This document shows positions 7,531 to 45,860 of a stretch of 64,000 nucleotides of DNA, one piece after another. A program made the translations under genes and the position numbers. Location of the stretch: positions 162,097 through 226,096 of the forward strand of contig JAHJQF010000001.1 in the NCBI GenBank assembly GCA_018819405.1. Direction: 5' to 3'. The stretch is from Patescibacteria group bacterium (lineage in GTDB: Bacteria; Patescibacteriota; Patescibacteriia; UBA1558; GWA2-36-10). Each line of letters starts with the position of its first letter. The stretch's first letter is position 1. The notes beneath the pieces were generated by a model. The model had not been told where the DNA came from. It ran no database searches and was given only the letters and a program-made list of their open reading frames with translations.

Positions 7531-7621
7531 AAATACAAAAAAAATGAAAAATGGGACAAGAAATAATACTCTTGCCCCACTTTGTTTTTTAGGGACCTCT
7601 TTCCCTTAAAAGGTTATACTA

Positions 7622-8563
7622 CTATTTCAAATCTTTTCTATAAAACTCAGCAGCGTCATCAGGATCTATTGGATTGATGATAAGTCCAGATCCAATCTCC
7701 ACTCCGGCCCAGACTGAACCGCGCGGTACTATTTTCATATAAAGATGTTGGTCATTGTCATTGATGACCTGATGAAAATAAAAATTATAAGGCAAATCAA
7801 GCTGACCAATTTTTATTAAAATATGTTTTAGGATTTTGGCAAATGAATTTCTCTCATCCTTTGTAAGCTCTGTGATATTGTCCCGATGAGCCAGAGGCAT
7901 AATCCAAACTTCATAATTGAACATGGAGGCATACGGGGTAAAGGCTACTACATTTTTATCTCTATAAATAAGCCGCGGCCCTTTTGATTCTTTATGTATT
8001 ACATCACAGTATACGCAGTGTCCGTGCTGAAGTTTATAAGCCTGCTGACGCTGACTTTTATCAAAAATATGTGGTGGTAAAAACTGAGTAGCAAATATCT
8101 GGCTATGAGAGTGCTGCAAACTAGCCCCAGCCACGCCACCATTATTTTTAAAAATCAAAATATATTCTATTTTTTTATCTTTGGAAATGGCTTTGGTCCT
8201 AGCCGCATAAGCTTCCAAAAGATCCGCTATCTGACTTACTGATAAATCCTCCAACTCTAGAGTATGATCAGATGTTTCTATCACTACTTCCTGATGACCG
8301 TAAGCTTTGGGGTTGTCTGTAGAGACTGCTGGATAAATATTTTTTATAATATTTATAGCCCAATCCTCTTTTCCGCCTTTGCGATATAAGCTCTTTACAT
8401 CCTTTAGATTTGACGGACAAAAAATACAACTTGCTTCCAATTTTTTCTTGTGTTCACCTGGACGGACAGTATCATGTGGTCTTTTACCACGCTTGGGAGC
8501 AATAATTACATACTTTTCTTGGATATAGTCTTTCCTTATTTCTGGTTTGGTCATTTTTGACAT
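7622..8563 (-). CDS. GalT-like hexose-1-phosphate nucleotidyltransferase (HIT superfamily; galactose-1-P uridylyltransferase or ADP-glucose phosphorylase type)
   Basis: Cys/His zinc motif 'CIFCP...HGHCVYCD' and active-site HxHxQ 'LQHSHSQIFA'. It is the last gene of the glycogen operon. Confidence 0.65.
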   Translation of the reverse strand: MSKMTKPEIRKDYIQEKYVIIAPKRGKRPHDTVRPGEHKKKLEASCIFCPSNLKDVKSLYRKGGKEDWAINIIKNIYPAVSTDNPKAYGHQEVVIETSDHTLELEDLSVSQIADLLEAYAARTKAISKDKKIEYILIFKNNGGVAGASLQHSHSQIFATQFLPPHIFDKSQRQQAYKLQHGHCVYCDVIHKESKGPRLIYRDKNVVAFTPYASMFNYEVWIMPLAHRDNITELTKDERNSFAKILKHILIKIGQLDLPYNFYFHQVINDNDQHLYMKIVPRGSVWAGVEIGSGLIINPIDPDDAAEFYRKDLK

Positions 8564-8587
8564 AATTATATTGAATTTATTGAAATA

Positions 8588-10051
8588 TTATTTTAACTTT
8601 TTATAAAGGCTTAGATATTTTTTGGCTGACATGTCCCAAGAAAAATCTTGTTTCATGCCATAAGTTATCATCTTTTTCATTTTAGCCTGATTCTGCCAAA
8701 TACGCAAAGAAATTTCTATAGCTTTGGCAGCTTCTGTTGGATTATATTTTTTAAAAACAATACCTGACTTATTATTTATCACAGTGTCTTTGAGACCGCC
8801 CGTAGCCCTGACAATAGGCACGGTACCATATCTCATAGCTATCATCTGCCCCAAACCGCAAGGCTCAAAACGAGACGGCATTAAGAAAAAATCTGAACCG
8901 GCATATATCTTTTGAGCCAAGGGGAGTGAAAAACTAATATTACTACTTACTTTTTCCGGATATTTTTTGGCCAGTTTTTTAAAAGCGTTTTCTATTTTGG
9001 GATGACCAGTGCCAAGCACTACTACTTGGAAGTCGTATTTTTTTAGATTTTTTTCCAAAGCTGGCACCAAAATATCAATGCCTTTTTGGCTAACCAAACG
9101 AGACACCAATCCCAAAACTGGTGTATCCTTAATTGGTAATTTTAGCTTCTTTTGCAAATCCTTTTTATTTATTTGCTTGGCTGAAACAAAATTTTGCAGA
9201 TTGTATTTCTTCTTCAAATTTTTGTCACGACTAGGATCAAACAATTTGGTATCAATCCCATTTAATATACCAAAAAGGTGTTTTTGACGCCGGCCGAGGT
9301 ATTCTTCAAGACCTTCACCATATTCTTTAGAAAGAATTTCTTTAGCATAGGTAGGACTGACAGTACTTATATAATCAGCCGATAAAATACCCACTTTCAT
9401 TGAGTCAATTTTTTGGCCATCTTTATCCAAATAATCCTCCATCAAAGCCGGAGTTAAGTGGGCATTTAAACCAGCGTAATCCAATATATCAAAACCGGTA
9501 ATACCCTGATGAGCTAGATTGTGAATAGTCAGGATACTTTTTATATTTTCAAAGTCTTTGTCACTCAAAGAATACTCATCTATAAAAGTCGGGGCCAAGG
9601 CCGTATGCCAATCATGAGCATGGATAATATCCGGTTTCCATTTCATGACTTTTATAGTTTCAATCACCGCCTTAGAAAAGAAAGCAAAGCGTTCTACGTC
9701 GCCCACTTTTTTCTTGGCACTTTGCTTGCTATCAATATAAACTTGTTTGGCATCAAAAATCCTATTTTTAATCAAATAAACAGGTACTTTGGAACCAGGT
9801 AAAAGACATTTATATAAATCGAACTTGTGCTCACGTTCGTTTATTTTGAGAGCAATATCCTTTTTATATAACTTAATATTATATTTTCTTTTATTTATCA
9901 AACCATAAAAAGGTAAAAATGTTTTTACATCCACTGAAAGCTTAACTAACGCCTGTGGCAATGAACCAACCACATCAGCCAATCCTCCTACTTTTACAAA
10001 TGGCGCCATTTCGGCGGCCATAAAAATAACTTGCATTTTATTTTTTGGCAT
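8588..10051 (-). CDS. glgA: Glycogen/starch synthase (GT5, GlgA)
   Basis: N-terminal 'MAPFVKVGGLADVVGSLPQAL' is the K-x-G-G-L signature; full GT-B length (487 aa). Confidence 0.85.
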   Translation of the reverse strand: MPKNKMQVIFMAAEMAPFVKVGGLADVVGSLPQALVKLSVDVKTFLPFYGLINKRKYNIKLYKKDIALKINEREHKFDLYKCLLPGSKVPVYLIKNRIFDAKQVYIDSKQSAKKKVGDVERFAFFSKAVIETIKVMKWKPDIIHAHDWHTALAPTFIDEYSLSDKDFENIKSILTIHNLAHQGITGFDILDYAGLNAHLTPALMEDYLDKDGQKIDSMKVGILSADYISTVSPTYAKEILSKEYGEGLEEYLGRRQKHLFGILNGIDTKLFDPSRDKNLKKKYNLQNFVSAKQINKKDLQKKLKLPIKDTPVLGLVSRLVSQKGIDILVPALEKNLKKYDFQVVVLGTGHPKIENAFKKLAKKYPEKVSSNISFSLPLAQKIYAGSDFFLMPSRFEPCGLGQMIAMRYGTVPIVRATGGLKDTVINNKSGIVFKKYNPTEAAKAIEISLRIWQNQAKMKKMITYGMKQDFSWDMSAKKYLSLYKKLK

Positions 10052-10053
10052 TT

Positions 10054-10632
10054 TTATTTTTCTTTTAAAAATTTTAGTATTTTCTCCGTCAATTTATCAT
10101 CAGGTAAGACTGAAGCATTTACAATCAGGTATTCCAATCGGCTTTTTTTGATTATTTCCATATAAGCCTGCTGTTGCCTAATATAATCTATTGGCTTTTG
10201 AGCAATTTTATTATAATGAGGATAAAGATTAAGTCTGTCGGTCAATCTCTTTTTTATCAAATCTTGATCTTCATCAAAAGTAACTAAAACAATCTTGGCC
10301 TTTATATTTTCTAATCTTTTTTCAATATCTGAAAAATCAAAATCCTGATTATTATATATTTTTTGATAGACCGCTTCTGTCAGATGGAATTTTTCTACCA
10401 TTACATTGGTATTATTTATTTCTTCCAAAAGCTCTAGGTACTTAAGTATAACACTTTTACCAAAACGGGTACCATACAATCCGACATCACAATTAAACCA
10501 ATGACAACCATCTAATATTTTACCGCCACTGTTATACTTTGGCTCCAAAAAATTGTAAACCCGGCTCATCAGATAGCTTTTGCCGGCCAATTCTGGTCCC
10601 TCAAATATTATATTATGTTTTGGTTTATCCAT
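10054..10632 (-). CDS. P-loop kinase of unknown substrate (deoxynucleoside/NMP kinase-like fold)
   Basis: Walker A 'FEGPELAGKSYL'. The 192-aa protein overlaps its neighbours by a few nt (translational coupling) inside the glycogen operon. Confidence 0.4.
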   Translation of the reverse strand: MDKPKHNIIFEGPELAGKSYLMSRVYNFLEPKYNSGGKILDGCHWFNCDVGLYGTRFGKSVILKYLELLEEINNTNVMVEKFHLTEAVYQKIYNNQDFDFSDIEKRLENIKAKIVLVTFDEDQDLIKKRLTDRLNLYPHYNKIAQKPIDYIRQQQAYMEIIKKSRLEYLIVNASVLPDDKLTEKILKFLKEK

Positions 10633-11707
10633 GGTGATACAAATTAATATTTCTATTGTTTTCTCTGGCCAGCTTCAAATGATTTATTGAATCCTCCAAC
10701 AAATCATCAATCGGATTTTCAATATCTTTCATATAAAAAAGAAATACCGCCGTACGAAGAGCCGTCCAACTCTGATATAGATTGATACGATTTATAAATT
10801 GTATATCAATCTGCTCAAAATCCTGCTCAAAATAACTTTCTACAAAATATTTTTTATATTCATTCATTTCCTTACGGGACAAAAAATTATGCCCCATAAA
10901 ATCCAGCTGCTGCAAAAAAGTACCCAAGTCCATCATTGGATCTCCCAAAGCAATATCAGTAAAATCTATCATCTCCAAATCCTTGGCCTCTAAACTCTTT
11001 ATCACTACATTTTCTGGGTGGTAATCTCCATAAATAATTGTCTTTTTTATGGTTTTATCATAGGCTTTTTTTGTTTTGGCCATATCCTTTACCAGCTTAT
11101 CAACCAGCTTGCCCTGACGCTTGTCAGTCAATAAAAAATCGCCCACAAAATGATTTGGTGATGGTACCATGTCATAAATATCAAAAATCGGCCATTTAAA
11201 ATTTGCCTTAAATTCTGTCTGGTGGAGTTTTTTAGCCCAACCAGCAATGAGTTTGAGCGAATGAGATAAATCAGCTTTAGGATTTTCAGTAAAAAAATAA
11301 AAAAAACTTCTACCTGGTGATGACTCATAAAAAAATGCTTTTTGTTCTGACAAGAAAAACAAAGGTTTAGTCACTCGAAATTGGCCTTTATCAAACCCAT
11401 GCTTGTACAAAGCCTTTGTTTTTTGGTAGGCTCCTTTTCTAGATCCGTCAGAATGCGCTGAGGCGAAAATATCTAAATTTTTCGTTTTGCCATGTTTATC
11501 CAAATATTTTATTTTGAACTCTACCACAAAAACTGCGCTAGTTACCCCCAGATGTCTTTTATAAGGATCTGAACTGATACTCAACATTGTTTTGAAATCA
11601 GGATAATATTTTGGTAAGTGCTGCCTAAATATTCCTTCGACAAAATCATGATCCACTAATCTGGCAATTTTTGCCTTGGATTTTTCTGATAATGCTCTTC
11701 TTTTCAT
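10625..11707 (-). CDS. APH/choline-kinase-like phosphotransferase (protein-kinase-like fold; candidate sugar kinase such as maltokinase)
   Basis: Brenner motif 'YGDYHPENVVI' and DFG-like 'IDFTDIALGDPMMDLG'. It sits between the GH57 gene and glgA. Confidence 0.55.
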   Translation of the reverse strand: MKRRALSEKSKAKIARLVDHDFVEGIFRQHLPKYYPDFKTMLSISSDPYKRHLGVTSAVFVVEFKIKYLDKHGKTKNLDIFASAHSDGSRKGAYQKTKALYKHGFDKGQFRVTKPLFFLSEQKAFFYESSPGRSFFYFFTENPKADLSHSLKLIAGWAKKLHQTEFKANFKWPIFDIYDMVPSPNHFVGDFLLTDKRQGKLVDKLVKDMAKTKKAYDKTIKKTIIYGDYHPENVVIKSLEAKDLEMIDFTDIALGDPMMDLGTFLQQLDFMGHNFLSRKEMNEYKKYFVESYFEQDFEQIDIQFINRINLYQSWTALRTAVFLFYMKDIENPIDDLLEDSINHLKLARENNRNINLYHHG

Positions 11708-11727
11708 ATCTTTACTACTCTAAAGTA

Positions 11728-12924
11728 TTATTTATGATACTTACGCCAGTGATCCAGCCAAGTATTCTTTTTTATATCAATATAAATTTTTTCTGCCCGT
11801 ATCTTTTCCTGATAACTAGCCTTAGATAGGGATCTGACAGCCTTAATAAGCTCCTCTGATCCATTGTCTATCATATCTGGGTTCCAGGTCAGTGGAGAAA
11901 AATCAGACGGTCTCTGAGCTGATGCCCACCAAAAAGTACAAGATGATTGTCCTCTGTCTAAATGTCTTCTGGCCCAATTCCAATTTTTGTCTTTTTTATA
12001 TTTATTTACCAGCTCAGTAGCCAAATCAACCAGACTCCACAATGACTTATGTATTTTATTTTTTGGACTATTCCACAAAGCATAAGGATTTTTCTTTTTC
12101 AACTCCTCCTCACTACTCTCCCAAGAGCCCGCTCTGAGCTCTATCCTTTTCTTTTCTTTTAATTTTTTTAAATACTGACCAACGGTTTCTACTCTCAAAT
12201 TTTTGTTGGCCATTATTTTTTCAATATGTCCCTGCCAATCCTGATGAAAGTGCCCATATATTTCTCCATCTGTACCCGTAATAATAGTGCCTTTTTCTAG
12301 ATTATTTAATTTATGAAAAATTATTTCAGCTGGGTAGCTTTTTGATATTTGCCTATCTCTAAAAACAACCTTTAAGCCTGTCTTATGATGTATATAAAGA
12401 AAATTATTATCTACTTTAGCTTTGTAGCAAATCGGATCCAAAATAATCCACTCAAATCCTTGTTTTTTTACTACTTTAGCCACCGTATCAGAGTAAGCCA
12501 TTTCTGGCATATAAAAACCTTTAATCTTTTTTTTATCAAAATACTGAGAAAGTATTTGTTTGTTCAGTTCAATCTGTCTTCTTATTTCTTTTTCTGACAA
12601 CATTGGCAAAAGAGCATGATATTTTGAACTACCAGTCAGCTCAATTTGATTATTTTTTACCAAAGCTTGCAGACGTTTTAAAATATCAGGATGGGCGTCT
12701 TCCAACTGCTCCACCAAATTACCAGAAATATTCAAACTAGCTTTGAATTTTGAATATTTTTCAAACAAAGAAAGCAAATACTCATAGCTTTCATTAGACA
12801 CTTGCTCTAAAATACCTTTATCTTGCCAGGGTGGTTGATAAATATGGAGAAAATTTACCCAATTTATTTTACCCGGCAACTTTTTATTATTAATTTTATT
12901 CATAAATCCACTTCCCAACACCAA
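11728..12924 (-). CDS. GH57-family alpha-glucan-active enzyme (small, 398 aa)
   Basis: Counterparts of GH57 conserved regions are present: 'FLHIYQPP' (region 1, HQP), 'NQIELTGSSKYHALLP' (region 2), 'GFYMPEMAY' (nucleophile Glu) and 'TGTDGEIYGHF' (acid/base Asp). Confidence 0.55.
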   Translation of the reverse strand: MVLGSGFMNKINNKKLPGKINWVNFLHIYQPPWQDKGILEQVSNESYEYLLSLFEKYSKFKASLNISGNLVEQLEDAHPDILKRLQALVKNNQIELTGSSKYHALLPMLSEKEIRRQIELNKQILSQYFDKKKIKGFYMPEMAYSDTVAKVVKKQGFEWIILDPICYKAKVDNNFLYIHHKTGLKVVFRDRQISKSYPAEIIFHKLNNLEKGTIITGTDGEIYGHFHQDWQGHIEKIMANKNLRVETVGQYLKKLKEKKRIELRAGSWESSEEELKKKNPYALWNSPKNKIHKSLWSLVDLATELVNKYKKDKNWNWARRHLDRGQSSCTFWWASAQRPSDFSPLTWNPDMIDNGSEELIKAVRSLSKASYQEKIRAEKIYIDIKKNTWLDHWRKYHK

Positions 12925-12937
12925 GAAGGCGTTGGAT

Positions 12938-14422
12938 TTATTTGATATTTTTTTTCTTAAATTTTATTGCTTCTTTGTACAAATCCTCATAACGTCTAGC
13001 CGGCAAGTCCCAAGAAAAAGATGGTTTCATACCACGACAGACCAAATCTCGCCAGACTTTTTTGTACTTGTATGTTTCAAGAGCTCTAGTGATTGCCACC
13101 AAAAACTCATTGGCATTATAATTTTTGAAAGTAAAACCATTGCCAGTATTTGTCTCTGGTTCAAAATTATCCACTGTATCACTCAAACCGCCCGTAGACC
13201 TGACAATCGGCACACAACCATAACGAAAGCTCTTCATCTGATTAATACCGCATGGCTCATGATGAGATGGCAAAAGAAGCATGTCTGCTCCAGCGTAAAC
13301 CTGTGTCTCGTATTTTTGATTCTTTTCATGAGAGGGAATTACAGCCAGCTTTTCCGGATATTTTTTGGCTACTTTTTTAAGCTCTTTGATAAAATCCTTA
13401 TCGCCACTACCAATTACCACTAGTTGCATATCAAAATGCATCAACTGAGGTATTATTTTTATCAATAAATCAAAACCTTTTTGAAAAGCTACGCGTGAAG
13501 TAGTACACAGTAAAGGGATCTCTTCATTAATTGGCAACTTAAAAAGCTTTTGGACAAATTTTTTATTTTCTTTCTTTCTTTTTATATTGCGATGATCATA
13601 ATTTTTAAAAATACTCTTGTCGTTTTTTGGATTGAATTCTTTATTATCAATGCCATTTACCACACCATATAGCTTGTGCTTTCGGTTGGTGAGAATCCTA
13701 TGCAAATCTTGGCCAAAATTTTTATTTAATATTTCTTCTGCATAAGTTTCTGAAACCGTATTGATGACATCGGCGCTTAATATACCTCTTTTGGCAAAAT
13801 TTATGTATTCAATATCAGGGTCATTAAACAAAGGCAAGGCTCCCTTGCCGTTATCTTTATGCTTTAGTGGTACTTCCCACCAATTCATACCAAGCTGAAA
13901 TACCAAATTATGAATAGTATAGACTGTAGCGGCATTGACCAAAGTCTGACTTTTTTTGAATCTAGTATTTTTTAAAAGTGGGATCAGTCCTGTCTGCCAA
14001 TCATGACAATGTATAATATCTGCTTTGAATTTTAAAAGAGAAATAAGCTTGAGGGCTGCAACTTGGAAAAGATAAAAACGAGTATTTTCATGATTGGATC
14101 CATAGACAGTGCTACGTCTGGAAAAATATTTGTCATTCCTGACAAAATAAACTTTCAAACCGGGCAAAAGCTCAGTACGATAATAGCTAACCTTTAGTTC
14201 ATTTTCTTTATCAATATAAAGATTGACATCATTATATATTTTTTCCAGTTTATACTTTTCTCTATCTATTATCTTTTTATAAAATGGGGTAATTATAATA
14301 ACATCATGACCCAAACGAAAAAGTGATTTGGGCAGTGACCTAGCAACATCGGCCAATCCACCTGTCTTGGAATATGGATCAACTTCTGAAGCAATTGATA
14401 CAATTTTTAAGCTTTTAGACAT
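12938..14422 (-). CDS. glgA: Glycogen synthase paralog (GT5, GlgA-like)
   Basis: 'IASEVDPYSKTGGLADVARSLPKSL' is a K-T-G-G-L signature; 494 aa. This is the second copy in the same operon. Confidence 0.8.
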   Translation of the reverse strand: MSKSLKIVSIASEVDPYSKTGGLADVARSLPKSLFRLGHDVIIITPFYKKIIDREKYKLEKIYNDVNLYIDKENELKVSYYRTELLPGLKVYFVRNDKYFSRRSTVYGSNHENTRFYLFQVAALKLISLLKFKADIIHCHDWQTGLIPLLKNTRFKKSQTLVNAATVYTIHNLVFQLGMNWWEVPLKHKDNGKGALPLFNDPDIEYINFAKRGILSADVINTVSETYAEEILNKNFGQDLHRILTNRKHKLYGVVNGIDNKEFNPKNDKSIFKNYDHRNIKRKKENKKFVQKLFKLPINEEIPLLCTTSRVAFQKGFDLLIKIIPQLMHFDMQLVVIGSGDKDFIKELKKVAKKYPEKLAVIPSHEKNQKYETQVYAGADMLLLPSHHEPCGINQMKSFRYGCVPIVRSTGGLSDTVDNFEPETNTGNGFTFKNYNANEFLVAITRALETYKYKKVWRDLVCRGMKPSFSWDLPARRYEDLYKEAIKFKKKNIK

Positions 14423-14916
14423 TAGGCTAATTTTTTATTAAAAAATGAAGCGCAGATAGCAATAGCCAAAGCATCGGCAGCATCATCGGAACGCGGTACT
14501 GCACTTAAGCTTAAAATAGTTTTGACCATCAACCCTACTTGCTGTTTGCTGGCACTGCCATTTGAGCAAACGGCTTGTTTTACCTGCAAAGGGGTAAACT
14601 CCAATATTTCTCTTTTATTTTGATAAATAGCCAACATCAATACTCCTCTGGCCTGGCCAACATCTAACGCTGTCTTGGCATTTTTGGCAAAATATAATTT
14701 TTCTACGGCTATTATATCCGGCTTATACTTTTTTATTAATTTTGAGACTTCTTTATAAATATCATCCAAGCGTTCAGGTAATTTTTTTCTTTTATCTGTC
14801 TGGATGCTACCCGTAGTCAAAAATTTTAGCTGATTGCCATTTTTTGAAATCACCCCAAATCCCGTATCAGCAATTCCTGGATCAAGCCCTAAAATAATTT
14901 TTTCAACCTGAGCCAT
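14422..14916 (-). CDS. ruvC: Holliday junction resolvase RuvC
   Basis: 'ILGLDPGIADTGFGVI' RuvC N-terminal catalytic motif; 164 aa. Confidence 0.85.
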   Translation of the reverse strand: MAQVEKIILGLDPGIADTGFGVISKNGNQLKFLTTGSIQTDKRKKLPERLDDIYKEVSKLIKKYKPDIIAVEKLYFAKNAKTALDVGQARGVLMLAIYQNKREILEFTPLQVKQAVCSNGSASKQQVGLMVKTILSLSAVPRSDDAADALAIAICASFFNKKLA

Positions 14917-15620
14917 TAGATACTTGCGTTAGTATAAATATTGTTTACATCATCATCATCGTCTAAATCATCAAATAACTTGATGAGTTTTTCATCGTCT
15001 TCTGGGTCTATTTTTTCTTTGGCTAGATATACCATGTCTGACGACTGTATTGTAAAAAAATTCGTCTGGAGTTTATTTTTGACATTTTCCAAATCATCAA
15101 TGGGACAAATAACCTTTACTTTATCCTCTACCACAATATCTTCTGCACCAGCTTCTATCACCTTGAGTTCTTCTTCCTCGCTCAACTTTTCTTTATCCAA
15201 AATTATTTCCCCTTTTATCTCAAACATCCATTGGACACTACCACTGCTACCCAAATTACCTCCGTGTTTGGATAAAATGTGCTTTATATTTGATACAGTC
15301 CTATTTTTATTGTCAGTTAATACTTCTATTATCAAGGCTACTCCTCCTGGTCCAAAACCTTCATACAACAAACTCTCAATCTGGGCACCCTCACCATCAC
15401 CGCTGCCTTTTTTGACCGCTCTTTCTATATTTTCTTTTGGCATAGAATAAGCCTTGGCCTTATCAATGGCCATCCTTAGCTTAAAATTGCTGTCTGGGTC
15501 AGCACCAGCTCTAGCCGCTACGCTAATATTTTTGGAAAGCTTAGTAAAAAGATTACTCCTTTTGGCATCCTTAGTCTCCTTAGCTCTCTTAGTTGTCGCC
15601 CACTTGCTGTGTCCACTCAT
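14916..15620 (-). CDS. yebC: YebC/PmpR family DNA-binding regulator
   Basis: 'MSGHSKWATTKRAKE' is the canonical YebC N-terminus. Confidence 0.85.
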   Translation of the reverse strand: MSGHSKWATTKRAKETKDAKRSNLFTKLSKNISVAARAGADPDSNFKLRMAIDKAKAYSMPKENIERAVKKGSGDGEGAQIESLLYEGFGPGGVALIIEVLTDNKNRTVSNIKHILSKHGGNLGSSGSVQWMFEIKGEIILDKEKLSEEEELKVIEAGAEDIVVEDKVKVICPIDDLENVKNKLQTNFFTIQSSDMVYLAKEKIDPEDDEKLIKLFDDLDDDDDVNNIYTNASI

Positions 15621-15840
15621 AAAAAATAAAAATTAGCCCTTTTTCTTGTATTATCTTACCAATTTTAAAGTAAAAAATCAATGGTAAATAACACAGACAA
15701 ATTAAGTCATTTTTTCCACTTGACGGAAAAGCAAATAAATAATAAGCTACTAATATCACCATTGATCAAGAATCCCCGCGTCCGTGCCTGGCGGGGATTT
15801 TTGTTTTACATAATTACTACTACCCGCGTCATTTTTTGAC

Positions 15841-15870
15841 GGAAAAAATGACGCGGGGTAAAATATAGCT
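15841..15870 (+). promoter_or_regulatory. Sigma70-like promoter TTGACG-N17-TAAAAT ending 6 nt before the ATG of the 15871 gene, giving a near-leaderless mRNA. It is embedded in a 35-nt palindrome at 15832-15866.
   Basis: 'cccgcgtcattttTTGACGgaaaaaatgacgcggggTAAAATatagctATG' has perfect 15-nt arms with the -35 in the centre. A paralogous element lies at 39964-40005. Confidence 0.45.
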
Positions 15871-17451
15871 ATGACTAAATTAATGAAAAAAATAACCGCT
15901 TGGAAAATTGATTATCTATTTCTATTTATCCTAATGTCTGTCTATTACTCCTGGATACAATGGAATAATTTTATAGGGGATCCAGACGGATTTTATCACG
16001 CCAAACTGGCCATTTGGTTAAGACAGGGTCATTTTATACAATCCTTGCCTTGGATGCAATTTTCCACACTACGTGATTCATTTACTGACCATCATCTACT
16101 CTATCATATATTACTGGCTCCATTTACTTATATACCCAACCCCCTGGTGGGTGTAAAAATCGCCACGGTTGTTTTTGCCGTTTTGATGGTCATGACTTTT
16201 TATTGGCTACTAAAAAGAATGAAAATTATCTGGCCAATAGCTTTTGCTTTGGCCTTTCTTACTTTAAATGGACTTAACTTTAGGATATCTTTGGTCAAAG
16301 CAAATAGTCTATCGCTGCTCATAATATGGCTTTTAATCTATGCCCTGTTCAACAAAAAAATATGGTTGAGTATGCTTTTGAGTTGGCTCTTTGTCTGGTT
16401 ATATGGTGGCTGGCCTTTGGCTATCTTGATATTAATTACTTATATAGTAAGTGAAAAAATATACACGCGCATTCATAGTAATAGAGTCAAAATATTTTGG
16501 GATAAAGCTATTCATTTTTTTGAAACAGACAGTAAGCACAAAACCCTAAAAATATCTACAGCTCTACTGACTGGATTAGCCTTGGGTGTAATCATTAATC
16601 CATATTGGCCACAGAACCTTTACTTCTATTATCAACAAGTCATCCAGATCGGATTGATAAATCAGGGACAAAATTTTGTCGTGGGCGGAGAGTGGTATGG
16701 TACCAGTATAATGAATATCATATCATCAGCTCCTCATGTTTTTGTCCTAGCCTGCCTATCTTTTCTGACCTTATTTTTTAATGTAAAGAAAGCCTCGCGA
16801 CTTAGTTGGTTTAGTTTTATATTAGTTTTTGGTTTTATGATACTAACTATAAAATCTAGGCGATATGTAGAATATTATATGCCCTTTGCTTTACTATTTA
16901 CCGCTAGCTCAATTACTGACTTAAAAGATTTTATAAAATTGGACAAAGTTATATCTATCTGGGAAAAACTTGGTCTTAACTTAAAAATATATTTATCAGT
17001 AGTTGCCATGGTCTTTTTTACTATGGTAATGCCCTCTATCTATGACCGTATTTTAAATGTAAAATTATCCGATAGCTGGACAATGGACAAATTTTTGCCT
17101 GCCACCAACTGGCTAGCTGAGAATACCCCACCTGATTCTATAGTTTTTCACAGTGATTGGGATGAATGGCCTGTTTTATTCTATCACAATGACCACAATT
17201 ATTATTTGATAGGCCTAGACCCAACTTTTATGGAAAATTATAATAGCCAGCTACACAAAACATACCGAGATATTACAAACGGTGAAACTAAATTTTCTGT
17301 GGCCAAACAAATAAAAAATTATTTTGGTGCTAATTATATTTTTGTAGATAAAAACGGCCATCAGGCCTTTATTGATAATCTTTCCCGAGATAAAGATGTA
17401 GAGCTTATGTTCAACGATAACGATAGTTCAATCTATAAAATAAATCTATAA
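15871..17451 (+). CDS. Polytopic membrane protein, putative GT-C-fold glycosyltransferase (PMT/ArnT-like)
   Basis: More than 10 predicted TM helices, and a first-loop acidic motif 'GDPDGFYHAK' reminiscent of the GT-C DxD/DE motif. Confidence 0.35.
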   Translation: MTKLMKKITAWKIDYLFLFILMSVYYSWIQWNNFIGDPDGFYHAKLAIWLRQGHFIQSLPWMQFSTLRDSFTDHHLLYHILLAPFTYIPNPLVGVKIATVVFAVLMVMTFYWLLKRMKIIWPIAFALAFLTLNGLNFRISLVKANSLSLLIIWLLIYALFNKKIWLSMLLSWLFVWLYGGWPLAILILITYIVSEKIYTRIHSNRVKIFWDKAIHFFETDSKHKTLKISTALLTGLALGVIINPYWPQNLYFYYQQVIQIGLINQGQNFVVGGEWYGTSIMNIISSAPHVFVLACLSFLTLFFNVKKASRLSWFSFILVFGFMILTIKSRRYVEYYMPFALLFTASSITDLKDFIKLDKVISIWEKLGLNLKIYLSVVAMVFFTMVMPSIYDRILNVKLSDSWTMDKFLPATNWLAENTPPDSIVFHSDWDEWPVLFYHNDHNYYLIGLDPTFMENYNSQLHKTYRDITNGETKFSVAKQIKNYFGANYIFVDKNGHQAFIDNLSRDKDVELMFNDNDSSIYKINL

Positions 17452-19320
17452 ATCTAGGTATATTATTTTACTAAGTGCTTCGGTCTTCATATCAAAGAAG
17501 GACGACCTCTTTTTGTCTAGAACACTTACACCGTCAAAAGCAAATATCTGAAAAGATTTTATACGATCTTCTAGATAATAAAAAAATATCATCTCTCTGT
17601 CCTGCCATTGACTGTCCGGAAATAATCCATAGTCAATAGGCAGGTCATAGCTATCATCGTCTGTATAAAAACGTATTATATAATATTGTTTATTTAGATT
17701 TGTTGGTTTAAAAGTTAAGGCTAATTTCTTTCCCTTATCCTGAATAAATTCTGATTTTTTAAAAACTAATTGTCCCTGTGTTTTTGAGCTCTTTTGGCCT
17801 GTCTGATACAGTATTTTATTTTCTAGCTGAGGATTAATATCCCGTTTTTGCCACAATAATATATTGGCTTTTACTTCCACTAAATTATAATTTTCTAGCT
17901 TCTTTCGAAAAGGCTCTGGCAAATTTATCTCTACCTTATCTTTGGCCAATAGCCACTTGGAATCTTGCAAAATATCTATAGATTCTCCATAGTCAAGTAT
18001 TATATAATCCACCAAGGGCCAGTCAAAGCTATTTATATAAAATTGACTACGGCCGATATAAGCGTAGCTAAATGGATAGACTACCTGTCTTTGGCTTAGT
18101 TGGGGTAAAAGATTTAAACTAGCAATCACACTACTATCACGACCAACAGTCTTTAACATATCATAACGTACATTATTGATATTTTTATCAAAATTTGCAG
18201 CTAGGACATCTTTGACGGGAGATAAAAATATGGAAAAATAGACTACGGCTACCAAAAACATACCTACAAAAATATCTTTATTTTTATAAATAAAATTGCT
18301 AGCCAAAAAAATTTTTTTTTCCAAAAGTAACCTGACTGAAAAAATAAAAGCAATAAAAATGGCCGGCAAAAAAACCAAAACATAGTGTAGAGAATAGACT
18401 ATAGAATTAAAGCCTTGGGCTGCTAATACAAATTGAATCAGAGGCACAAAAGCCAACCAAAAATATTTTGGTTTTAAAATTGGAATAAAAAATAAGGTTA
18501 TCAATAAAACGAAAATGCTTCCTATATTTTGTATAGTAAAAATATGAGCAAAAACTTCTAGCAGCCAGGTCCAGGGATTTTTCCAGGCTTCTATTATCCA
18601 ACTATAATAAACTACAAACTTATACCCTTGGCCATCGGCTATATGACCAATAGCCAACATTGCTAAAATAAAATATAAAATTGGTACAAAAAATGCAGCC
18701 ATTTTCCACTTGAGACTACGCTTATCTAAAATAGCCAAAGGCAAAAATCCCAAAAGCATCAAGGCAATATCTTCTCTTACTAATAAAGATAAAATCATAA
18801 ACAATATAAACAGCCCAAAAAATTTCTTATAATAAAAATAAAAAGCAAAAAATATAAAAAATATTGCCAAAGGCAACATATGAAATTCAAAAAGATTAGC
18901 ATTATGGACAAAAGGATTGATGAGCCAAAGCAAAGATATAAATAAAGCTAAATGTTTCTTTCCTATAGCCAATTCGGCAATCAAATAAATTGGCCAGGCG
19001 CAAAGGGCAAGAATAAAACTCTGAATGACCAGTAATATTTCCGGACCGGGGTGTATGGCATAAAAAGGAATTAAAAAAATAATAGCCAAAGCAAAATGAT
19101 CTGCCAAGTAATTGTTTAGATTGATAGTCAGATCAAACCAACGCCCCTGTAAGGTATTAAAAAATACTTGGTTAAAAATCGCCAAATCAAAAACATTATA
19201 AGCAAAATTATAATATTTTTTTAAACTCAAAAAAGAGAATAATAAAATATATAAAATAATAAAACCAGTCAAAAAAATAGCTGCTTTGCTATCAATATAT
19301 CTTTTTAAAACTTTATACAT
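17446..19320 (-). CDS. DUF2079-like integral membrane protein with a C-terminal soluble domain
   Basis: 'NVFDLAIFNQVFFN' is typical of DUF2079; there are many TM helices. Confidence 0.4.
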   Translation of the reverse strand: MYKVLKRYIDSKAAIFLTGFIILYILLFSFLSLKKYYNFAYNVFDLAIFNQVFFNTLQGRWFDLTINLNNYLADHFALAIIFLIPFYAIHPGPEILLVIQSFILALCAWPIYLIAELAIGKKHLALFISLLWLINPFVHNANLFEFHMLPLAIFFIFFAFYFYYKKFFGLFILFMILSLLVREDIALMLLGFLPLAILDKRSLKWKMAAFFVPILYFILAMLAIGHIADGQGYKFVVYYSWIIEAWKNPWTWLLEVFAHIFTIQNIGSIFVLLITLFFIPILKPKYFWLAFVPLIQFVLAAQGFNSIVYSLHYVLVFLPAIFIAFIFSVRLLLEKKIFLASNFIYKNKDIFVGMFLVAVVYFSIFLSPVKDVLAANFDKNINNVRYDMLKTVGRDSSVIASLNLLPQLSQRQVVYPFSYAYIGRSQFYINSFDWPLVDYIILDYGESIDILQDSKWLLAKDKVEINLPEPFRKKLENYNLVEVKANILLWQKRDINPQLENKILYQTGQKSSKTQGQLVFKKSEFIQDKGKKLALTFKPTNLNKQYYIIRFYTDDDSYDLPIDYGLFPDSQWQDREMIFFYYLEDRIKSFQIFAFDGVSVLDKKRSSFFDMKTEALSKIIYLDL

Positions 19321-21554: not shown

Positions 21555-22190
21555 TTAGTATATTTTAGAACCATCGGTAGCACAAACCTGTTCACCTGGA
21601 CAGCATGACGTACAACCAGAGACAGCATAAGCACCATTATAATCTTGCGGATTATAATTTTCTGGCAAACAAGCTGTTTTATAATTATTTTTTAGACCAG
21701 CATAAACACATTGTGATATACAAATTTCATTATAAACTACTAACTCTGCTTGCGAAAACGTCCCCGAGCACACCATTAAACTCCCTGGCTCTCCACATGG
21801 AGATCCAGGCCCCTTTCCTTGGCAAGAAATTGTAGTGATACGATATGGTTCTTTAACATTTAAAACCTGATTAACAAAAAAATCCAAAATTAGATAGCCG
21901 CCAAAAGCAACAATAATAGCAAAAATAGTGTTTGTCATTATATCTTTGCCTTTTTTTACTCTCTCAGCATTACCGGATGATATCAACCATTGAACACCTC
22001 CATAAACAAAATAGACCAAAGCTACCGCTCCCATAGCCCCCAACATCAACTTGATCAACAAAAGAAAACCTGTAGCAATATCTTCAAGGCCACAATTTCC
22101 ATATTCTATACATCCTAATCCATCCAAAAATCCCGCCCTGGCTATTAGAGGACTAGTTAAAAAAATTAAGCTAACAAAAAATTTTATCAT
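21555..22190 (-). CDS. TrbC/VirB2-like pilin paralog 4 with a Cys-rich C-terminal extension of about 110 aa
   Basis: 'YGGVQWLISSGNAERVKKGKD' core, followed by a domain with 14 Cys. Its start codon overlaps the upstream SBP stop (ATGA). Confidence 0.5.
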   Translation of the reverse strand: MIKFFVSLIFLTSPLIARAGFLDGLGCIEYGNCGLEDIATGFLLLIKLMLGAMGAVALVYFVYGGVQWLISSGNAERVKKGKDIMTNTIFAIIVAFGGYLILDFFVNQVLNVKEPYRITTISCQGKGPGSPCGEPGSLMVCSGTFSQAELVVYNEICISQCVYAGLKNNYKTACLPENYNPQDYNGAYAVSGCTSCCPGEQVCATDGSKIY

Positions 22191-23560
22191 TGCGGTTCTT
22201 TATATGTTTGATTTATCTGACCAACCAATAAACCTAGGCTTGCGTTTTTATCATCCAAAACATATTCTCCTGATAAAAGCTTGTCAATAAAATCTCCTAA
22301 GTATTGTTCAGCCAGATTAATATTGTAACCTCTATACCAAGTATCAGCAGTCAAAACCTGAGAAGCAAATATTGAAGTATCATAATTAGCAATCTGCTTG
22401 TCAATCAAAGAACGTAAAGCTGTTGGCTTTTTATTTTCAGTTAAATATTTTGATACCAAATCCTCTGAAGCTGTTGTCTGGACAAAATTCCAGGCTGCAT
22501 CCTGATTTTTTGATTTTTTGGCAACCACATTAACCCAAAAATTAGCATAATATTTGGTAATTTCTGCGCCTCTAGTTTGAGGAAAGTTTGTAATACCCCA
22601 ATCAAATTGAGTCTTTCTACGCCTTAATTCATCAGCATGATAACTATAGCCAAAAAAATAAGCTAGTTTGCCACCAGCAAACATCTCAAAGGCATTTTCC
22701 AAATCACTATTCCAGCTATAACTAGCTTTGCCCGGCTTGGCAAAATCTGTATAAAAAGCAAAGGCTTGAGCAAGTCTCTGTGCAGAGTCTTTATCGTCTA
22801 AAGGTGAAAAGGCCGTCTCTGATTTAGCGTTTACCCCATTTTGCATCATGATAGAAGAAAAAATATCAAAAAACCTAGGTATATTATCAGTACCACCAAG
22901 AGCAACTGCTGATTGAATTATTTGATTGCCCTCTGTTGCTTTAGTCAGCTTTGGAGTCTGATCCACTAAATCAAAAAAGTCAGTAATTGGTTCCGCTATA
23001 CCTGCTTTGGTAATCATGTCTAGATTATAAAAAGTAACTAGCGTATCTAATGAATACGGCAAACCATATATTTTTTCATCAACTATTATATTGTCATAAA
23101 CTGCTGGAACATACTTAATCTTTATATCTTGAGGAGACAAGCCGGCAAATTGTCGCATCACTATCACAGTTTCTGATTTTATAGAGCCCTGTATTTCATA
23201 TATTGGAATTTTGTGAGCTGAGGGCATAACTACTATCCTATGTTGATAAGCTTTTATCCAATTGGCTGGAATCGCAAAAATATCCGGTCCTCTGTCATCA
23301 GCCCAAGCTTCCAAAAGCTCGCGTTCGTATTCTTCATAACGAAAACGTCTATAATTTACTTTTACAGTCGGATGGGTTTTTTCATAATCTGCAATCAATG
23401 TTTTCAATTGAGCCTCTGTATCCCAAACACCCCAGTATTCCAAAGTAACCGGCTGGTAAAGCTCCTTATCTGATCGAAAAGGATTCCACTTGCAACCAAA
23501 GCCACTGTTTAAAACAAGGGTAAATAATAATAAAATTGTAAAAATTCTAAACCTTCTCAT
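22187..23560 (-). CDS. Extracellular solute-binding lipoprotein (SBP_bac_1 family, sugar-type), orphan with no permease or ATPase adjacent
   Basis: Lipobox 'NSGFGC'; 'GPDIFAIPANWIKAY' and 'YGLPYSLDTLVTFYNLDM' are typical of family-1 SBPs; 457 aa. Confidence 0.65.
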   Translation of the reverse strand: MRRFRIFTILLLFTLVLNSGFGCKWNPFRSDKELYQPVTLEYWGVWDTEAQLKTLIADYEKTHPTVKVNYRRFRYEEYERELLEAWADDRGPDIFAIPANWIKAYQHRIVVMPSAHKIPIYEIQGSIKSETVIVMRQFAGLSPQDIKIKYVPAVYDNIIVDEKIYGLPYSLDTLVTFYNLDMITKAGIAEPITDFFDLVDQTPKLTKATEGNQIIQSAVALGGTDNIPRFFDIFSSIMMQNGVNAKSETAFSPLDDKDSAQRLAQAFAFYTDFAKPGKASYSWNSDLENAFEMFAGGKLAYFFGYSYHADELRRRKTQFDWGITNFPQTRGAEITKYYANFWVNVVAKKSKNQDAAWNFVQTTASEDLVSKYLTENKKPTALRSLIDKQIANYDTSIFASQVLTADTWYRGYNINLAEQYLGDFIDKLLSGEYVLDDKNASLGLLVGQINQTYKEPQ

Positions 23561-24429
23561 TTTACTTTTTTAAAATAATCTTTCAAAAATTCTCTGAGCT
23601 CTTTTCTTTCCATGGCGTACTCCAGTGTGGCGCGCAATAAATTCAAAGGATCCCCAGTAGTCAGCCACTCTCCATCTTTTATTTCTTTGGCATAAAACTT
23701 TCCGCCGGATTTTATATAATTTCTGATAGCATCAACTATCCATAGTTCGTTGCCTTTTCCCAATCGTGTTTTTTGTAAAACATCGACTATGTCCTGATTC
23801 AAAATCATACGACCAAAATCAGCCAGATTAGAAGGAGCATCTTTGATAGATGGTTTTTCTATAATGTCATTTAGCTGCATTGTCTTTGTGTTTTTCAAAC
23901 TGACAATACCATATCTATCCACCTGATCACGCGGCACTTCTTGAACCCCAATCATCAAATGTCCGGTTTTGTTGTAATCATCTACCATTTGCTTGGCAAA
24001 AGGTATTTTTGATTTTACTAAATCATCACCCCAGACGTACATAAAAGGCTCATCATCAACCAAGCTAGCTGCCGAAAGAACTGGTGTGCCATTACCATAT
24101 GGCCCTTTTTGTCTTATATAAACAAAATTGGCCATTTCTGAGATTTTTTTAACTGCCGCTAGCTTATCTTTTTTTCCGGCTTTGGCCAGTTCATTTTCTA
24201 GAGCCCAAGAATGATCAAAATGATCCTCAAGAGGTTTTTTGTCCCACTTGGTCACAAGTATAATGTCCTCTATGCCAGCTGCCACCAATTCTTCAACTAC
24301 TAGCTGAATAACCGGCTTATCTACTATTGGCAACATTTCCTTGGGCATGGTTTTGGTAGCCGGCAAAAGCCTAGTACCTGATCCAGCTACAGCAACTACA
24401 GCTTTTCGGATTTTTTGATTTTTTTTCAT
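23557..24429 (-). CDS. galU: UTP--glucose-1-phosphate uridylyltransferase
   Basis: 'AVAGSGTRLLPATKTMPKEMLPIVDKPVIQ' is the GalU signature; 290 aa. Confidence 0.85.
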   Translation of the reverse strand: MKKNQKIRKAVVAVAGSGTRLLPATKTMPKEMLPIVDKPVIQLVVEELVAAGIEDIILVTKWDKKPLEDHFDHSWALENELAKAGKKDKLAAVKKISEMANFVYIRQKGPYGNGTPVLSAASLVDDEPFMYVWGDDLVKSKIPFAKQMVDDYNKTGHLMIGVQEVPRDQVDRYGIVSLKNTKTMQLNDIIEKPSIKDAPSNLADFGRMILNQDIVDVLQKTRLGKGNELWIVDAIRNYIKSGGKFYAKEIKDGEWLTTGDPLNLLRATLEYAMERKELREFLKDYFKKVK

Positions 24430-42700: not shown

Positions 42701-43705
42701 CTATTTTCTTAAAATAATTTTGGCAAGTTTATATATGCTATACCAGCTATTGTTATAAATCAAGTTGTAGGCCCCTGGTGAATATACCACCTGACCGCCA
42801 AAACCTTTTTTAAAACGACTAATACCAACCCATTTTGGTTTGGATCCGTCTTCTGGGGCAATACCCCAAAAATCATAAATCTCCGCGCCCAGAGTTTTGG
42901 CTTTTTTTATACTCTCCCACTGCAAAAGATGTGGTGCCATATAATTTCTGAATTCATAATCTGAAGCACCATGCAAATAGGTCATAGCTTGACCAAAATA
43001 AATCAAAATATTGGCCGCTACCGGCTGACCGTTTACTGTGGCTATAGCTAGATGAGCAACTTTATGATCAAGTAAGGTTTTAAAAAGTAAACGATAATAA
43101 TCATCGTCATGAATTTTTATTTCTTTTCTATCGGCTGTTTTTCTATTCAACGCCAAAAAAATTTCTATATCTTTTTCGTCTTGAGAAAAAAATACTGACA
43201 CTCCTTTTTTCTTGGCCAAAGCAATATTGTATCTGGTCTTAGTGTGCATATTGGCTAGTAATTTTTTTTCTTCATCTTTGATATCAAGAATCCAAGTATC
43301 ACGCGGTTGGACATCTGGACACTTTTGTAGTTCTGGCAAAATCAAATTACTATTTTCTGGTTCTAACTTAAAAAATATTTCTTCCTTTTTTTTGGTTTCA
43401 ATAGTAATCTCTCGTGCTTGTGACAAAATAAATCTTAAAACATCCTTTCTTTTTTCTTCGCTTATACCCTGACTAATGACCGGTCCCTTGGGACTATAAA
43501 GATAAGTCCTGTCAAAAGGTAATTTGTTTTCATACAAAAGACAAAGACCTATTAATTTATCCTCTTCTAAGACCGCTGCTTGCCAATATCTTTTGCCCTG
43601 TCTAGATAAAAAATTTCTCCAAACACTAGACTGTAAAAAATTACCAGAGACAAATCTGGTAGTTAAAAAATCATCATAATTTTCTTTATTACAAACTAAC
43701 TTCAT
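42701..43705 (-). CDS. FemAB-family peptidoglycan interpeptide-bridge aminoacyltransferase
   Basis: PF02388-like, with C-terminal 'YDFWGIAPEDGSKPKWVGISRFKKGFGG'. Confidence 0.6.
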   Translation of the reverse strand: MKLVCNKENYDDFLTTRFVSGNFLQSSVWRNFLSRQGKRYWQAAVLEEDKLIGLCLLYENKLPFDRTYLYSPKGPVISQGISEEKRKDVLRFILSQAREITIETKKKEEIFFKLEPENSNLILPELQKCPDVQPRDTWILDIKDEEKKLLANMHTKTRYNIALAKKKGVSVFFSQDEKDIEIFLALNRKTADRKEIKIHDDDYYRLLFKTLLDHKVAHLAIATVNGQPVAANILIYFGQAMTYLHGASDYEFRNYMAPHLLQWESIKKAKTLGAEIYDFWGIAPEDGSKPKWVGISRFKKGFGGQVVYSPGAYNLIYNNSWYSIYKLAKIILRK

Positions 43706-44268
43706 TTGTTTATATATTTAAGAGCTTCTTTGATACGCGTGGCCAGATCATCACTCTTGGGCAAAGTCTTTAATACTTCTTGAGCCTCACTTTGTTTGTA
43801 GCCCAGTGACATCAAAGCTTCGGCTACTTGCTTGTCGCTATCACTGGTCATAGATGGTTGGCTCAAGTCCACAATAAATTTTTCTTTGAGGTCTACCACT
43901 AGTCTCTCAGCAGTCTTCTTACCAATACCAGACACTTTTTGTAGCATAGTAGAATCTCCACTAGTAATAGCCCGCTTGAGATCATCAAGTGAGGCTAGAG
44001 CCAAGACATTTAAAGCACTCTTTGGTCCGACGCCTGACACAGAAATAAGTTTTTTGAAAAAATCCAACTCCTCTAAACTGGAAAAACCATAAAGATCAAA
44101 AGCATCCTCTTTGATATAAGAATGAATAAAAAAATCCACCTCATCCTGCTCACGGCATTTTTCTAGAGTTTTGGTTGGCAAAAAAACATCATAACCTATC
44201 CCACCAACCAAAACAATGGCGGATCTAGTAGCTTTTTTGATTATCTTACCTTTTAAATAGGCTATCAT
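43702..44268 (-). CDS. ruvA: Holliday junction branch-migration protein RuvA
   Basis: 'MIAYLKGKI...IVLVGGIGYDVFLP' and a helix-hairpin-helix middle domain. Confidence 0.85.
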   Translation of the reverse strand: MIAYLKGKIIKKATRSAIVLVGGIGYDVFLPTKTLEKCREQDEVDFFIHSYIKEDAFDLYGFSSLEELDFFKKLISVSGVGPKSALNVLALASLDDLKRAITSGDSTMLQKVSGIGKKTAERLVVDLKEKFIVDLSQPSMTSDSDKQVAEALMSLGYKQSEAQEVLKTLPKSDDLATRIKEALKYINK

Positions 44269-44405
44269 AATAATCTTATTCTACCAGACTTAGCCCTCTT
44301 TTTCAATTGACAAAAAATATCTTATATATTAAATTATTTTTGCAACTTGCTTTACTACTATACTTCTGCCCAGTGAGTCTGTACCCTCACAGAAAGGAAG
44401 GATCC

Positions 44406-45185: not shown

Positions 45186-45197
45186 GAGACTGGTCTG

Positions 45198-45505: not shown

Positions 45506-45511
45506 CTTTGT

Positions 45512-45805: not shown

Positions 45806-45860
45806 AAAAATTTTAAACCATTTACCATAATGATGCAGGGTTATTTTTTTTATTTAATAC

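Follow-up and report, generated by a model that had tools for sequence, protein, structure and literature searches.

A compact block of alpha-glucan genes

We examined a 64,000-nucleotide stretch of a Patescibacteria genome (contig JAHJQF010000001.1), called here the window, in which six adjacent minus-strand genes encode two GT5 glycogen/starch synthases (GlgA2 and GlgA1), a short GH57 enzyme, a kinase of the aminoglycoside phosphotransferase (APH) fold, a small P-loop kinase, and a GalT-like enzyme of the HIT superfamily. These six genes are a module of conserved order across dozens of species of the Candidate Phyla Radiation (CPR), and catalytic motifs are intact in all six of the encoded proteins. 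In the window they follow yebC and ruvC (Table 1).

The open reading frame (ORF) list reproduces all eight ORFs of this block, from 15620 to 7622 on the minus strand, at the coordinates and in the order given by an initial annotation of the sequence, and the compactness it described is equally apparent: adjacent genes overlap or lie at most 24 nucleotides (nt) apart, and a terminator closes the series. From yebC to the GalT-like gene the successive spacings are -1, -1, 13, 20, -8, 2, and 24 nt, the overlaps including 1 nt between yebC and ruvC and 8 nt between the two kinase genes. The strong terminator hairpin lies 39 nt past the stop codon of the GalT-like gene, and a gene at 15871-17451 diverges from yebC. 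Since the spacing is near-gapless, a hairpin lies at the end, and the only sizeable gap lies upstream of yebC, the eight-gene block looks like one transcription unit.

Table 1. Features of the glucan gene block and the GalU-like gene (window coordinates)
Feature	Coordinates	Strand	Remarks
yebC (YebC/PmpR-family regulator)	14916..15620	-	NF001030, 292 bits, above cut-off; heads the co-directional block
ruvC (Holliday-junction endonuclease)	14422..14916	-	NF000711, 204 bits; stop overlaps glgA2 start by 1 nt
glgA2, GT5 glycogen/starch synthase paralog, 494 aa	12938..14422	-	TIGR02095, 489 bits
Short GH57 enzyme, 398 aa from a TTG start (orthologs ~385 aa)	11728..12924	-	PF03065, 4e-31
APH/eukaryotic-like-kinase-fold kinase, 360 aa	10625..11707	-	PF01636, 3.6e-10
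P-loop phosphotransferase, 192 aa	10054..10632	-	Walker A GPELAGKS; no Pfam match
glgA1, GT5 glycogen/starch synthase, 487 aa	8588..10051	-	TIGR02095, 532 bits
GalT-like HIT-superfamily nucleotidyltransferase	7622..8563	-	PF01087 + PF02744; public gene call starts 3 codons later (310 aa)
Intrinsic-terminator-like hairpin closing the operon	7548..7583	-	15-bp stem, 5 G-C pairs, then T-run
Intergenic region 5' of yebC, probable promoter region (predicted)	15621..15870	-	Only gap >24 nt in the block
GalU-like UTP-glucose-1-phosphate uridylyltransferase, outside the operon	23557..24429	-	TIGR01099 best match, 283 bits, cut-off 327

Most of the textbook glycogen genes were sought and not found. With the E. 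coli proteins as tblastn queries, homologs of GlgB, GlgX, and GlgP were detected neither in the 64-kb window nor in 89 CPR loci; there is no glgC in either set, the E. coli GlgC query producing a weak match to a generic 238-aa nucleotidyltransferase. The window contains no GH13 enzyme detectable with GlgB and GlgX as queries or in Pfam and NCBIfam scans of its ORFs, and most of its other ORFs of at least 110 aa have nothing glycogen-related in such scans. The initial annotation had stated that glgC, glgB, and glgP are missing from the window and that no GlgE or TreS is present; tblastn and the ORF scans bear out the first statement, and the lack of any GH13 enzyme agrees with the second.

The block resembles the classical E. 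coli glgBXCAP operon in being a compact alpha-glucan operon with GT5 GlgA-type synthases that bear all the hallmark motifs. However, it has two GlgA paralogs, no GlgC, GH13 GlgB, GlgX, or GlgP nearby, and a short GH57 enzyme, two kinases, and a HIT-family enzyme in place of the missing genes; GlgA alone is common to the two systems. The classical arrangement, with GlgC, a GH13 GlgB, GlgX, and a GT35 GlgP encoded together with GlgA, is thus not what the window holds.

The gene at 23557, named galU in the initial annotation, is indeed GalU-like, TIGR01099 being its best match, though below the cut-off, and by its sequence it is a candidate source of UDP-glucose. It overlaps the gene for a 457-aa SBP_bac_1 solute-binding protein (22187-23560), which has no adjacent permease and is followed by a gene resembling type IV secretion system (T4SS) pilins, all three being on the minus strand (21555-24429). 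The pair of GalU and solute-binding protein genes is also present upstream of the cluster in one related locus (L025, 2-1763), and in five further species loci homologs of the solute-binding protein lie ~5-6 kb downstream of glgA1.

Conservation of the module in related genomes

Species-representative genomes were scanned with an alignment of the P-loop kinase, which gave 80 loci, and the window proteins together with extra genes were mapped onto these loci. Neighbors within 6 kb of the P-loop gene were counted in the well-flanked subset, the 39 of 80 loci flanked by 5 kb or more on each side. Nearly all of these (38 of 39) have a glucan gene within that distance: GlgA in 37, GH57 in 33, the APH-like gene in 30, and the GalT-like gene in 18, while two genes with no homolog in the window, encoding a PHP-family phosphatase and a GDE_C-like protein, are found in 15 and 11, respectively.

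The APH-like gene almost always lies directly after GH57 (51 of its 52 occurrences; median gap, 22 nt). Other direct adjacencies are GlgA2-GH57 (49 times), RuvC-GlgA2 (45 loci; in the window ruvC is translationally coupled to glgA2 by the 1-nt overlap), YebC-RuvC (43 of the 80 loci), P-loop-GlgA1 (34 times), and GlgA1-GalT-like (21 loci), and the PHP gene follows APH 24 times and precedes the P-loop gene 28 times. The generalized order, with optional members in parentheses, is YebC, RuvC, GlgA2, GH57, APH, (PHP), P-loop, (GDE_C/GH100-like), GlgA1, (GalT-like). The exact architecture of the window is the commonest single one (10 species).

Every one of the 80 loci that bears a phylum-level label is from Patescibacteria. 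Many cluster-bearing contigs (L016, L022, L025-L027, L037, L044, and others) are labeled Gammaproteobacteria or Lysobacteraceae; because of their gene content, these labels are probably wrong (default or mis-binned).

The same order is found in Nomurabacteria and Parcubacteria at 49-56% identity of the APH-like protein. At 29-36% identity the core is kept, and the interval from the APH-like gene to glgA1 also encodes a phosphatase of the PHP family, a transferase of family GT4, or a pyruvyl transferase. The stretch from APH to glgA1 or the GalT-like gene is a lineage-variable slot (L005, 11065-12960; L006, 11040-12924; L092, 2270-7994; L093, 2674-4378; and many of L010-L089), whose contents include PHP, a GDE_C/GH100-like hydrolase, GT4, polysaccharide pyruvyl transferase, ATP-grasp, a second APH-like kinase, and aldo-keto reductase. 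In L092 and L093 the middle of the cluster consists of a second APH-like gene, GT4 transferases, and an ATP-grasp enzyme, or of an aldo-keto reductase and PHP. The PHP protein of the relatives is nearest the group of 3',5'-nucleoside bisphosphate phosphatase and RNase AM (2YB1, 4e-22; NF041577, 140 bits, below cut-off), and the GDE_C-like protein resembles GH100 invertases in its C-terminal third and has a weak match to glucosylglycerate hydrolase. A 150-aa gene of the dual-specificity phosphatase family (the laforin/SEX4 fold class) lies ~1.6 kb downstream of the cluster in L005 (16916-17368), which may be coincidence.

Rearranged variants also occur. In L008, L009, and L033 the P-loop gene adjoins a GDE_C-like gene with GlgA nearby, in a different setting without yebC-ruvC; in L091 a GalT-like gene follows a lone GlgA; and in L094 the APH-like, GlgA1, and GalT-like genes stand together without a P-loop gene. 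Every APH-like context examined adjoins GH57 or glgA, even at 27-35% identity, and the genes flanking the module differ between loci. Because the rearranged variants keep the P-loop gene beside glgA, we regard the kinases as integral to the module and not as passengers, and because these links survive rearrangement we infer functional coupling and not inherited synteny alone. The two kinases belong to the glucan module as dedicated components and are embedded in it no less firmly than the synthases themselves.

The initial annotation had named a lack of conservation of the kinases with glgA and GH57 in related genomes as grounds against its reading; the comparison of gene neighborhoods finds both kinases conserved with these genes. 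It had also remarked that the small P-loop kinase is without precedent in glycogen operons, and we found none in the literature. Our literature search returned no description of the cluster, CPR studies listing glycogen synthase or GH57 (as a generic amylase) only in gene inventories.

Properties of the encoded proteins

Both synthases exceed the TIGR02095 cut-off of 328 bits and carry the GT5 GlgA motifs KxGGL, RxxxQKG, EPCG, and TGGLxDT. These read KVGGL, RLVSQKG, PSRFEPCGL, and TGGLKDT in GlgA1 and KTGGL, RVAFQKG, EPCG, and TGGLSDT in GlgA2. The two are 38% identical to each other, and GlgA1 is consistently nearer to E. coli GlgA than GlgA2 is (35% and 30% identity, respectively, for the window proteins). 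Since both types keep fixed positions in the cluster across species, their duplication appears to be old.

In the GH57 protein, E141 and D219 are invariant across 21 orthologs in the profile and align with the catalytic-region motifs TERVW and DDGEKFG of the Thermococcus litoralis 4-alpha-glucanotransferase 1K1W (8e-20), motifs that we take to be the sites of the GH57 catalytic nucleophile Glu and acid/base Asp. The nucleophile Glu and acid/base Asp of the family thus both stand in conserved regions, and by sequence the protein is a catalytically competent GH57 enzyme. The second-best structural relatives of the profile are GH57 branching enzymes (3N8T, 1e-16), so that it is slightly closer to the 4-alpha-glucanotransferase. 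With 398 aa the protein is too short in architecture for a branching enzyme of the known kind, which has three domains and ~520-560 aa, and it scores far below the cut-offs of the curated branching-enzyme models (NF041133, 53.5 bits against 1000; NF041566, 32.6 bits against 920). It has in common with 1K1W and with the branching enzymes (3N8T, 5WU7, and 1UFA) the catalytic (beta/alpha)7 domain with nucleophile Glu and acid/base Asp, but at ~385-398 aa it has neither the beta-sandwich domain found at the C terminus of the transferase nor the insertions and C-terminal parts that bring the branching enzymes to 520-560 aa.

In the APH-like kinase, K50, D228, H230, and N233 (in YGDYHPEN), and D248 (in IDFTD) are invariant in 31 homologs. 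The protein thus has the ATP-binding Lys, the catalytic loop (YGDYHPEN, for the HGDxHxxN of the family), and the metal-binding Asp of the APH fold, and it matches PF01636 with 40 bits (cut-off 23.2). Its AlphaFold2 model has a predicted local distance difference test (pLDDT) score of 93; the top fold matches in the PDB (Foldseek) are APH(2'')-IVa and PsiK, with further matches to choline/ethanolamine kinases and peptide kinases, at template modeling scores (TM-scores) of 0.5-0.6. Many bacterial APH-fold enzymes phosphorylate sugar hydroxyls, and Mak, NahK, AmgK, and MtnK are anomeric sugar kinases among them.

The initial annotation had likened this kinase to the maltokinase (Mak/Pep2) of the GlgE pathway, an analogy that the comparisons do not uphold, since the best matches are APH(2'') enzymes and PsiK. 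PDB searches at E values up to 1, with the protein by itself and with the profile of 31 sequences, returned no maltokinase, and there is none in the top 50 Foldseek matches of the model; a GH13 enzyme is likewise missing from the window. The GlgE pathway (TreS-Mak/Pep2, GlgE, and GlgB; in actinobacteria, pseudomonads, and some Chlamydiae) also places an APH-fold kinase amid alpha-glucan genes, but the GH13_3 GlgE and the TreS by which it is recognized are both lacking in the window, and the kinase has no specific similarity to maltokinase. Two APH-like proteins in other genomes (P0018 and P0040) are named "3',5'-nucleoside bisphosphate phosphatase" by one source; this is the family of the PHP gene that neighbors APH elsewhere, and the names may stem from transferred annotation or from a fusion of APH and PHP in some genome.

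The P-loop protein belongs to a small family that stands apart from others, its relatives being thymidylate and deoxynucleoside kinases. An exhaustive profile search of 1.84 billion representatives returned just 34 members at E <= 1e-10, beyond which scores fall sharply to generic thymidylate- and deoxynucleoside-kinase-like proteins. Invariant in the family are the Walker A motif GxELxGKS, the motif DGCHW-N-D, the EK of EKFH, and R129, D132, and R133 of the lid; the window protein reads DGCHWFNCD, F46 and C48 being at least 90% conserved. It has no Pfam match and a 1e-3 match to dTMP kinase. The fold nearest its AlphaFold2 model (pLDDT 94) is that of YorR from the SPbeta prophage of B. subtilis (3KB2/2AXP), followed by thymidylate kinases, and the profile alignment places EKF on the DRF of YorR and the lid KKRLxDR on KKRLRVR. 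The protein carries lid arginines and a P-loop carboxylate.

With the thymidylate/deoxynucleoside kinase superfamily to which YorR belongs, the window protein thus has in common the P-loop fold (TM-score 0.67-0.74), Walker A, an EKF motif at the place of DRF or DRY, and the arginine lid; it differs in having the family-specific DGCHWFNCD instead of the dTMP-binding REPGGT. An ordinary thymidylate kinase was rejected at the family level: the protein does not match PF02223 and scores 18.8 bits against the TIGR00041 cut-off of 83, and the Walker A stretch alone aligns with E. coli Tmk, with REPGGT/DRY replaced by DGCHWFNCD/EKF. The exhaustive search for fusions that might reveal function returned one long protein, P0240 (1185 aa, with TPR and CHAT), which matches the first 81 residues alone and looks like a chimeric gene call.

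The GalT-like protein has both half-domains of the HIT-like type (PF01087 and PF02744, above cut-off), the HxHxQ motif as HSHSQ, and the CxxC zinc site as CIFC, and it narrowly clears the TIGR00209 galT cut-off (105.2 against 102.1 bits). Among 1203 homologs, the best 120 share 67-90% identity. Its best solved relative is the Arabidopsis protein At5g18200 (1Z84/2H39; 1.2e-44), matched over the full length with the zinc motif and the HSHSQ active-site motif in common, so that the initial annotation's suggestion of an enzyme that handles a sugar nucleotide is plausible. We take 1Z84 to be the Arabidopsis ADP-glucose phosphorylase; At5g18200 is said to have been characterized as such by McCoy and colleagues in 2006. 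By its sequence, the GalT-like protein is probably an NDP-glucose (nucleoside diphosphate glucose) phosphorylase. It differs from its plant relative in being linked in an operon to glycogen synthase; we know of no report of such linkage for At5g18200.

Several features of the window lie outside these proteins. dnaN (46691-47791) and dnaA (48089-49471) stand where the GC skew switches sign, near 47-49 kb; this puts the replication origin within the window, at a distance of ~35 kb from the glucan operon, which is on the leading strand. The gene divergent from yebC is a 526-aa ORF without family match that adjoins a DUF2079 membrane protein gene (15871-19320), and a similar pair is found upstream of yebC in two related genomes (L001, 811-5925; L003, 74-3554). 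ruvA (43702-44268) lies ~28 kb from ruvC, and ruvB was seen beside neither. Between ruvA and dnaN is a GC-rich island (44400-46200; 45-55% GC, compared with ~35% for the genome), which holds a hydrophobic 292-aa ORF with a TTG start and no Pfam match (44307-45185) and a hydrophobic 94-aa ORF (45926-46210). The ~0.7 kb between these two contains no ORF of at least 100 aa, and Rfam returned nothing above threshold in the island, which may be a foreign insert or an unrecognized structured RNA. The TruB pseudouridine synthase (1580-2683) is a 367-aa fusion with an N-terminal cytidylyltransferase-like domain (residues 7-95), a domain absent from the 261-aa TruB of L003.

A proposed pathway and its alternatives

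We propose that the module is a Patescibacteria-specific operon for the synthesis and turnover of an alpha-glucan of the glycogen type, a reading to which we give a probability of about 0.55. Because the same gene set recurs in dozens of species, these bacteria probably make or recycle their sugar store in a way unlike textbook glycogen metabolism. The two GT5 synthases would elongate alpha-1,4 chains from NDP-glucose. Since there is no glgC nearby, the donor may be UDP-glucose from the nearby GalU-like enzyme and/or ADP-glucose; Pseudomonas aeruginosa likewise has GalU and lacks glgC, and UDP-glucose has been inferred to be the substrate for its GlgA-derived glucan (PMC8084333). The HIT enzyme would set the donor pool by interconverting NDP-glucose and inorganic phosphate with glucose-1-phosphate and NDP, and the short GH57 would be a retaining transglycosylase that rearranges chains, whether by transfer, branching, or trimming.

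Because of its near-obligate adjacency to GH57, and because many bacterial APH-fold enzymes phosphorylate sugar hydroxyls, the probable substrate of the APH-like kinase is a small sugar handled or set free by GH57 (glucose, maltose, or a malto-oligosaccharide), which the kinase would return to the phosphorylated pool. The P-loop enzyme, which travels with glgA1 and in relatives with the GDE_C/GH100-like hydrolase and PHP, may phosphorylate a released sugar or sugar phosphate, or a nucleotide for the donor; its fold suggests a nucleotide or phosphate acceptor, and its adjacency to the GDE_C-like gene a released sugar. The gene association is robust; the acceptors proposed for both kinases are guesses.

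Several observations weigh against this proposal. The equilibrium of ADP-glucose phosphorylase favors phosphorolysis, so the HIT enzyme may drain the donor pool and not supply it. The modeled P-loop fold looks like that of a nucleotide or nucleoside kinase, unlike a sugar kinase. Part of the conservation, especially that of the upstream yebC-ruvC, could be inherited synteny, and glgC, glgB, glgP, pgm, glk, and tmk may lie elsewhere in the 1.04-Mb genome, beyond the 64-kb window. The relatives that carry GT4, pyruvyl transferase, ATP-grasp, or aldo-keto reductase genes in the cluster suggest that the product is not always plain glycogen, and in some lineages it may be decorated or primed. The phosphorylated or primed non-canonical glucan suggested in the initial annotation is compatible with the relatives that add a PHP phosphatase, GT4 transferases, a pyruvyl transferase, or an aldo-keto reductase.

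Two other assignments of the kinases can be set against the proposed operon for synthesis and turnover, each of them unlikely. In one, one or both kinases phosphorylate the polymer itself, opening it for degradation or marking it, and PHP removes the phosphate in relatives. In many lineages a PHP phosphatase gene separates the APH-like gene from the P-loop gene, which points in this direction, as does the dual-specificity phosphatase gene downstream of the cluster in L005, and with no GH13 branching enzyme nearby and a GH57 that is not demonstrably branching, the polymer could be poorly soluble. The relatives, in which glucan synthases and hydrolases are accompanied by a kinase and a phosphatase, would then resemble the cycles of plant starch (glucan water dikinase with SEX4/LSF2) and of animal glycogen (laforin); however, the enzyme folds of the CPR module are entirely different, the known glucan kinases being dikinases of another fold, and phosphorylation of its polymer is hypothetical. 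The operon of the window has no phosphatase, moreover, the PHP protein is nearest nucleotide 3'-phosphatases and RNase AM and not known glucan phosphatases, and PHP stands beside the P-loop gene also where there is no APH-like gene (L034 and L056). In the other, which is equally improbable, the module makes a sugar nucleotide independently of glgC: the APH-like enzyme is an anomeric kinase that forms the 1-phosphate of glucose or maltose, the P-loop enzyme supplies NDP as a nucleoside monophosphate (NMP) kinase, and the HIT enzyme runs in reverse, from NDP and glucose-1-phosphate to NDP-glucose and inorganic phosphate, with GlgA pulling the reaction forward. This would fit the proximity of the HIT enzyme to the At5g18200 structure with HSHSQ kept, the tight linkage of its gene to GlgA in three different arrangements, the nucleotide-kinase features of the P-loop protein (a fold nearest thymidylate and deoxynucleoside kinases, lid arginines, and a P-loop carboxylate), the nucleotide phosphatases among the relatives of PHP, the lack of glgC in the window and the loci, and the existence of several anomeric sugar kinases with the APH fold. 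Yet the GalT-like gene is near the P-loop gene in just 18 of the 39 well-flanked loci, an NMP kinase is not obviously needed because GlgA releases NDP, the equilibrium disfavors synthesis, and a GalU-like gene is available.

That the kinases are passengers, engaged in unrelated tasks such as nucleotide salvage or the phosphorylation of small molecules or proteins and held in place by ancestral gene order, is decidedly less probable. The upstream yebC-ruvC pair is unrelated to glucan and equally conserved, the P-loop fold is a nucleotide kinase fold, and all loci come from one superphylum, as such a reading would have it. Against it stand the differing flanks outside the module, the constant company of the APH-like gene with GH57 or glgA even at 27-35% identity, the P-loop gene that stays beside glgA or a GDE_C-like gene when relocated, and the small size of the P-loop family and its confinement to genomes with the module. 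Least probable of all, by a small step further, is a GlgE-like pathway built on GH57, in which the APH-like kinase makes maltose-1-phosphate and GH57 extends the glucan in place of a GH13 GlgE. The direct GH57-APH adjacency (51 of 52; median gap 22 nt), the retaining nature of GH57 with both catalytic residues intact, and the maltokinase resemblance remarked in the initial annotation speak for it, but no maltokinase was found in the profile matches (E up to 1) or the top 50 folds, the window has no TreS or GH13 enzyme, and two conventional GT5 synthases already elongate. A broader possibility, more probable than any of these four though still doubtful, is that the module represents a new alpha-glucan pathway with two new kinase families as catalytic steps, either a pyrophosphorylase-free route to NDP-glucose or one in which the polymer or a primed oligosaccharide is reversibly phosphorylated, the short GH57 in both cases taking the place of the branching and processing enzymes of GH13.

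Patescibacteria account for a large part of bacterial diversity, with tiny genomes and a mostly uncultured, host-dependent existence, and how they store and recover carbon bears on this lifestyle. Few metabolic modules of several genes are conserved in many of their lineages, and the operon is one of these. Most of the textbook glycogen genes are missing from it, and it holds two kinase families, one of which has no Pfam model and a few dozen representatives in 1.84 billion clustered proteins; all six of its proteins are small and look soluble. If the proposed roles are true, the module would either add new sugar or nucleotide kinase activities together with a new way of feeding glycogen synthase, or disclose a bacterial form of glucan phosphorylation.

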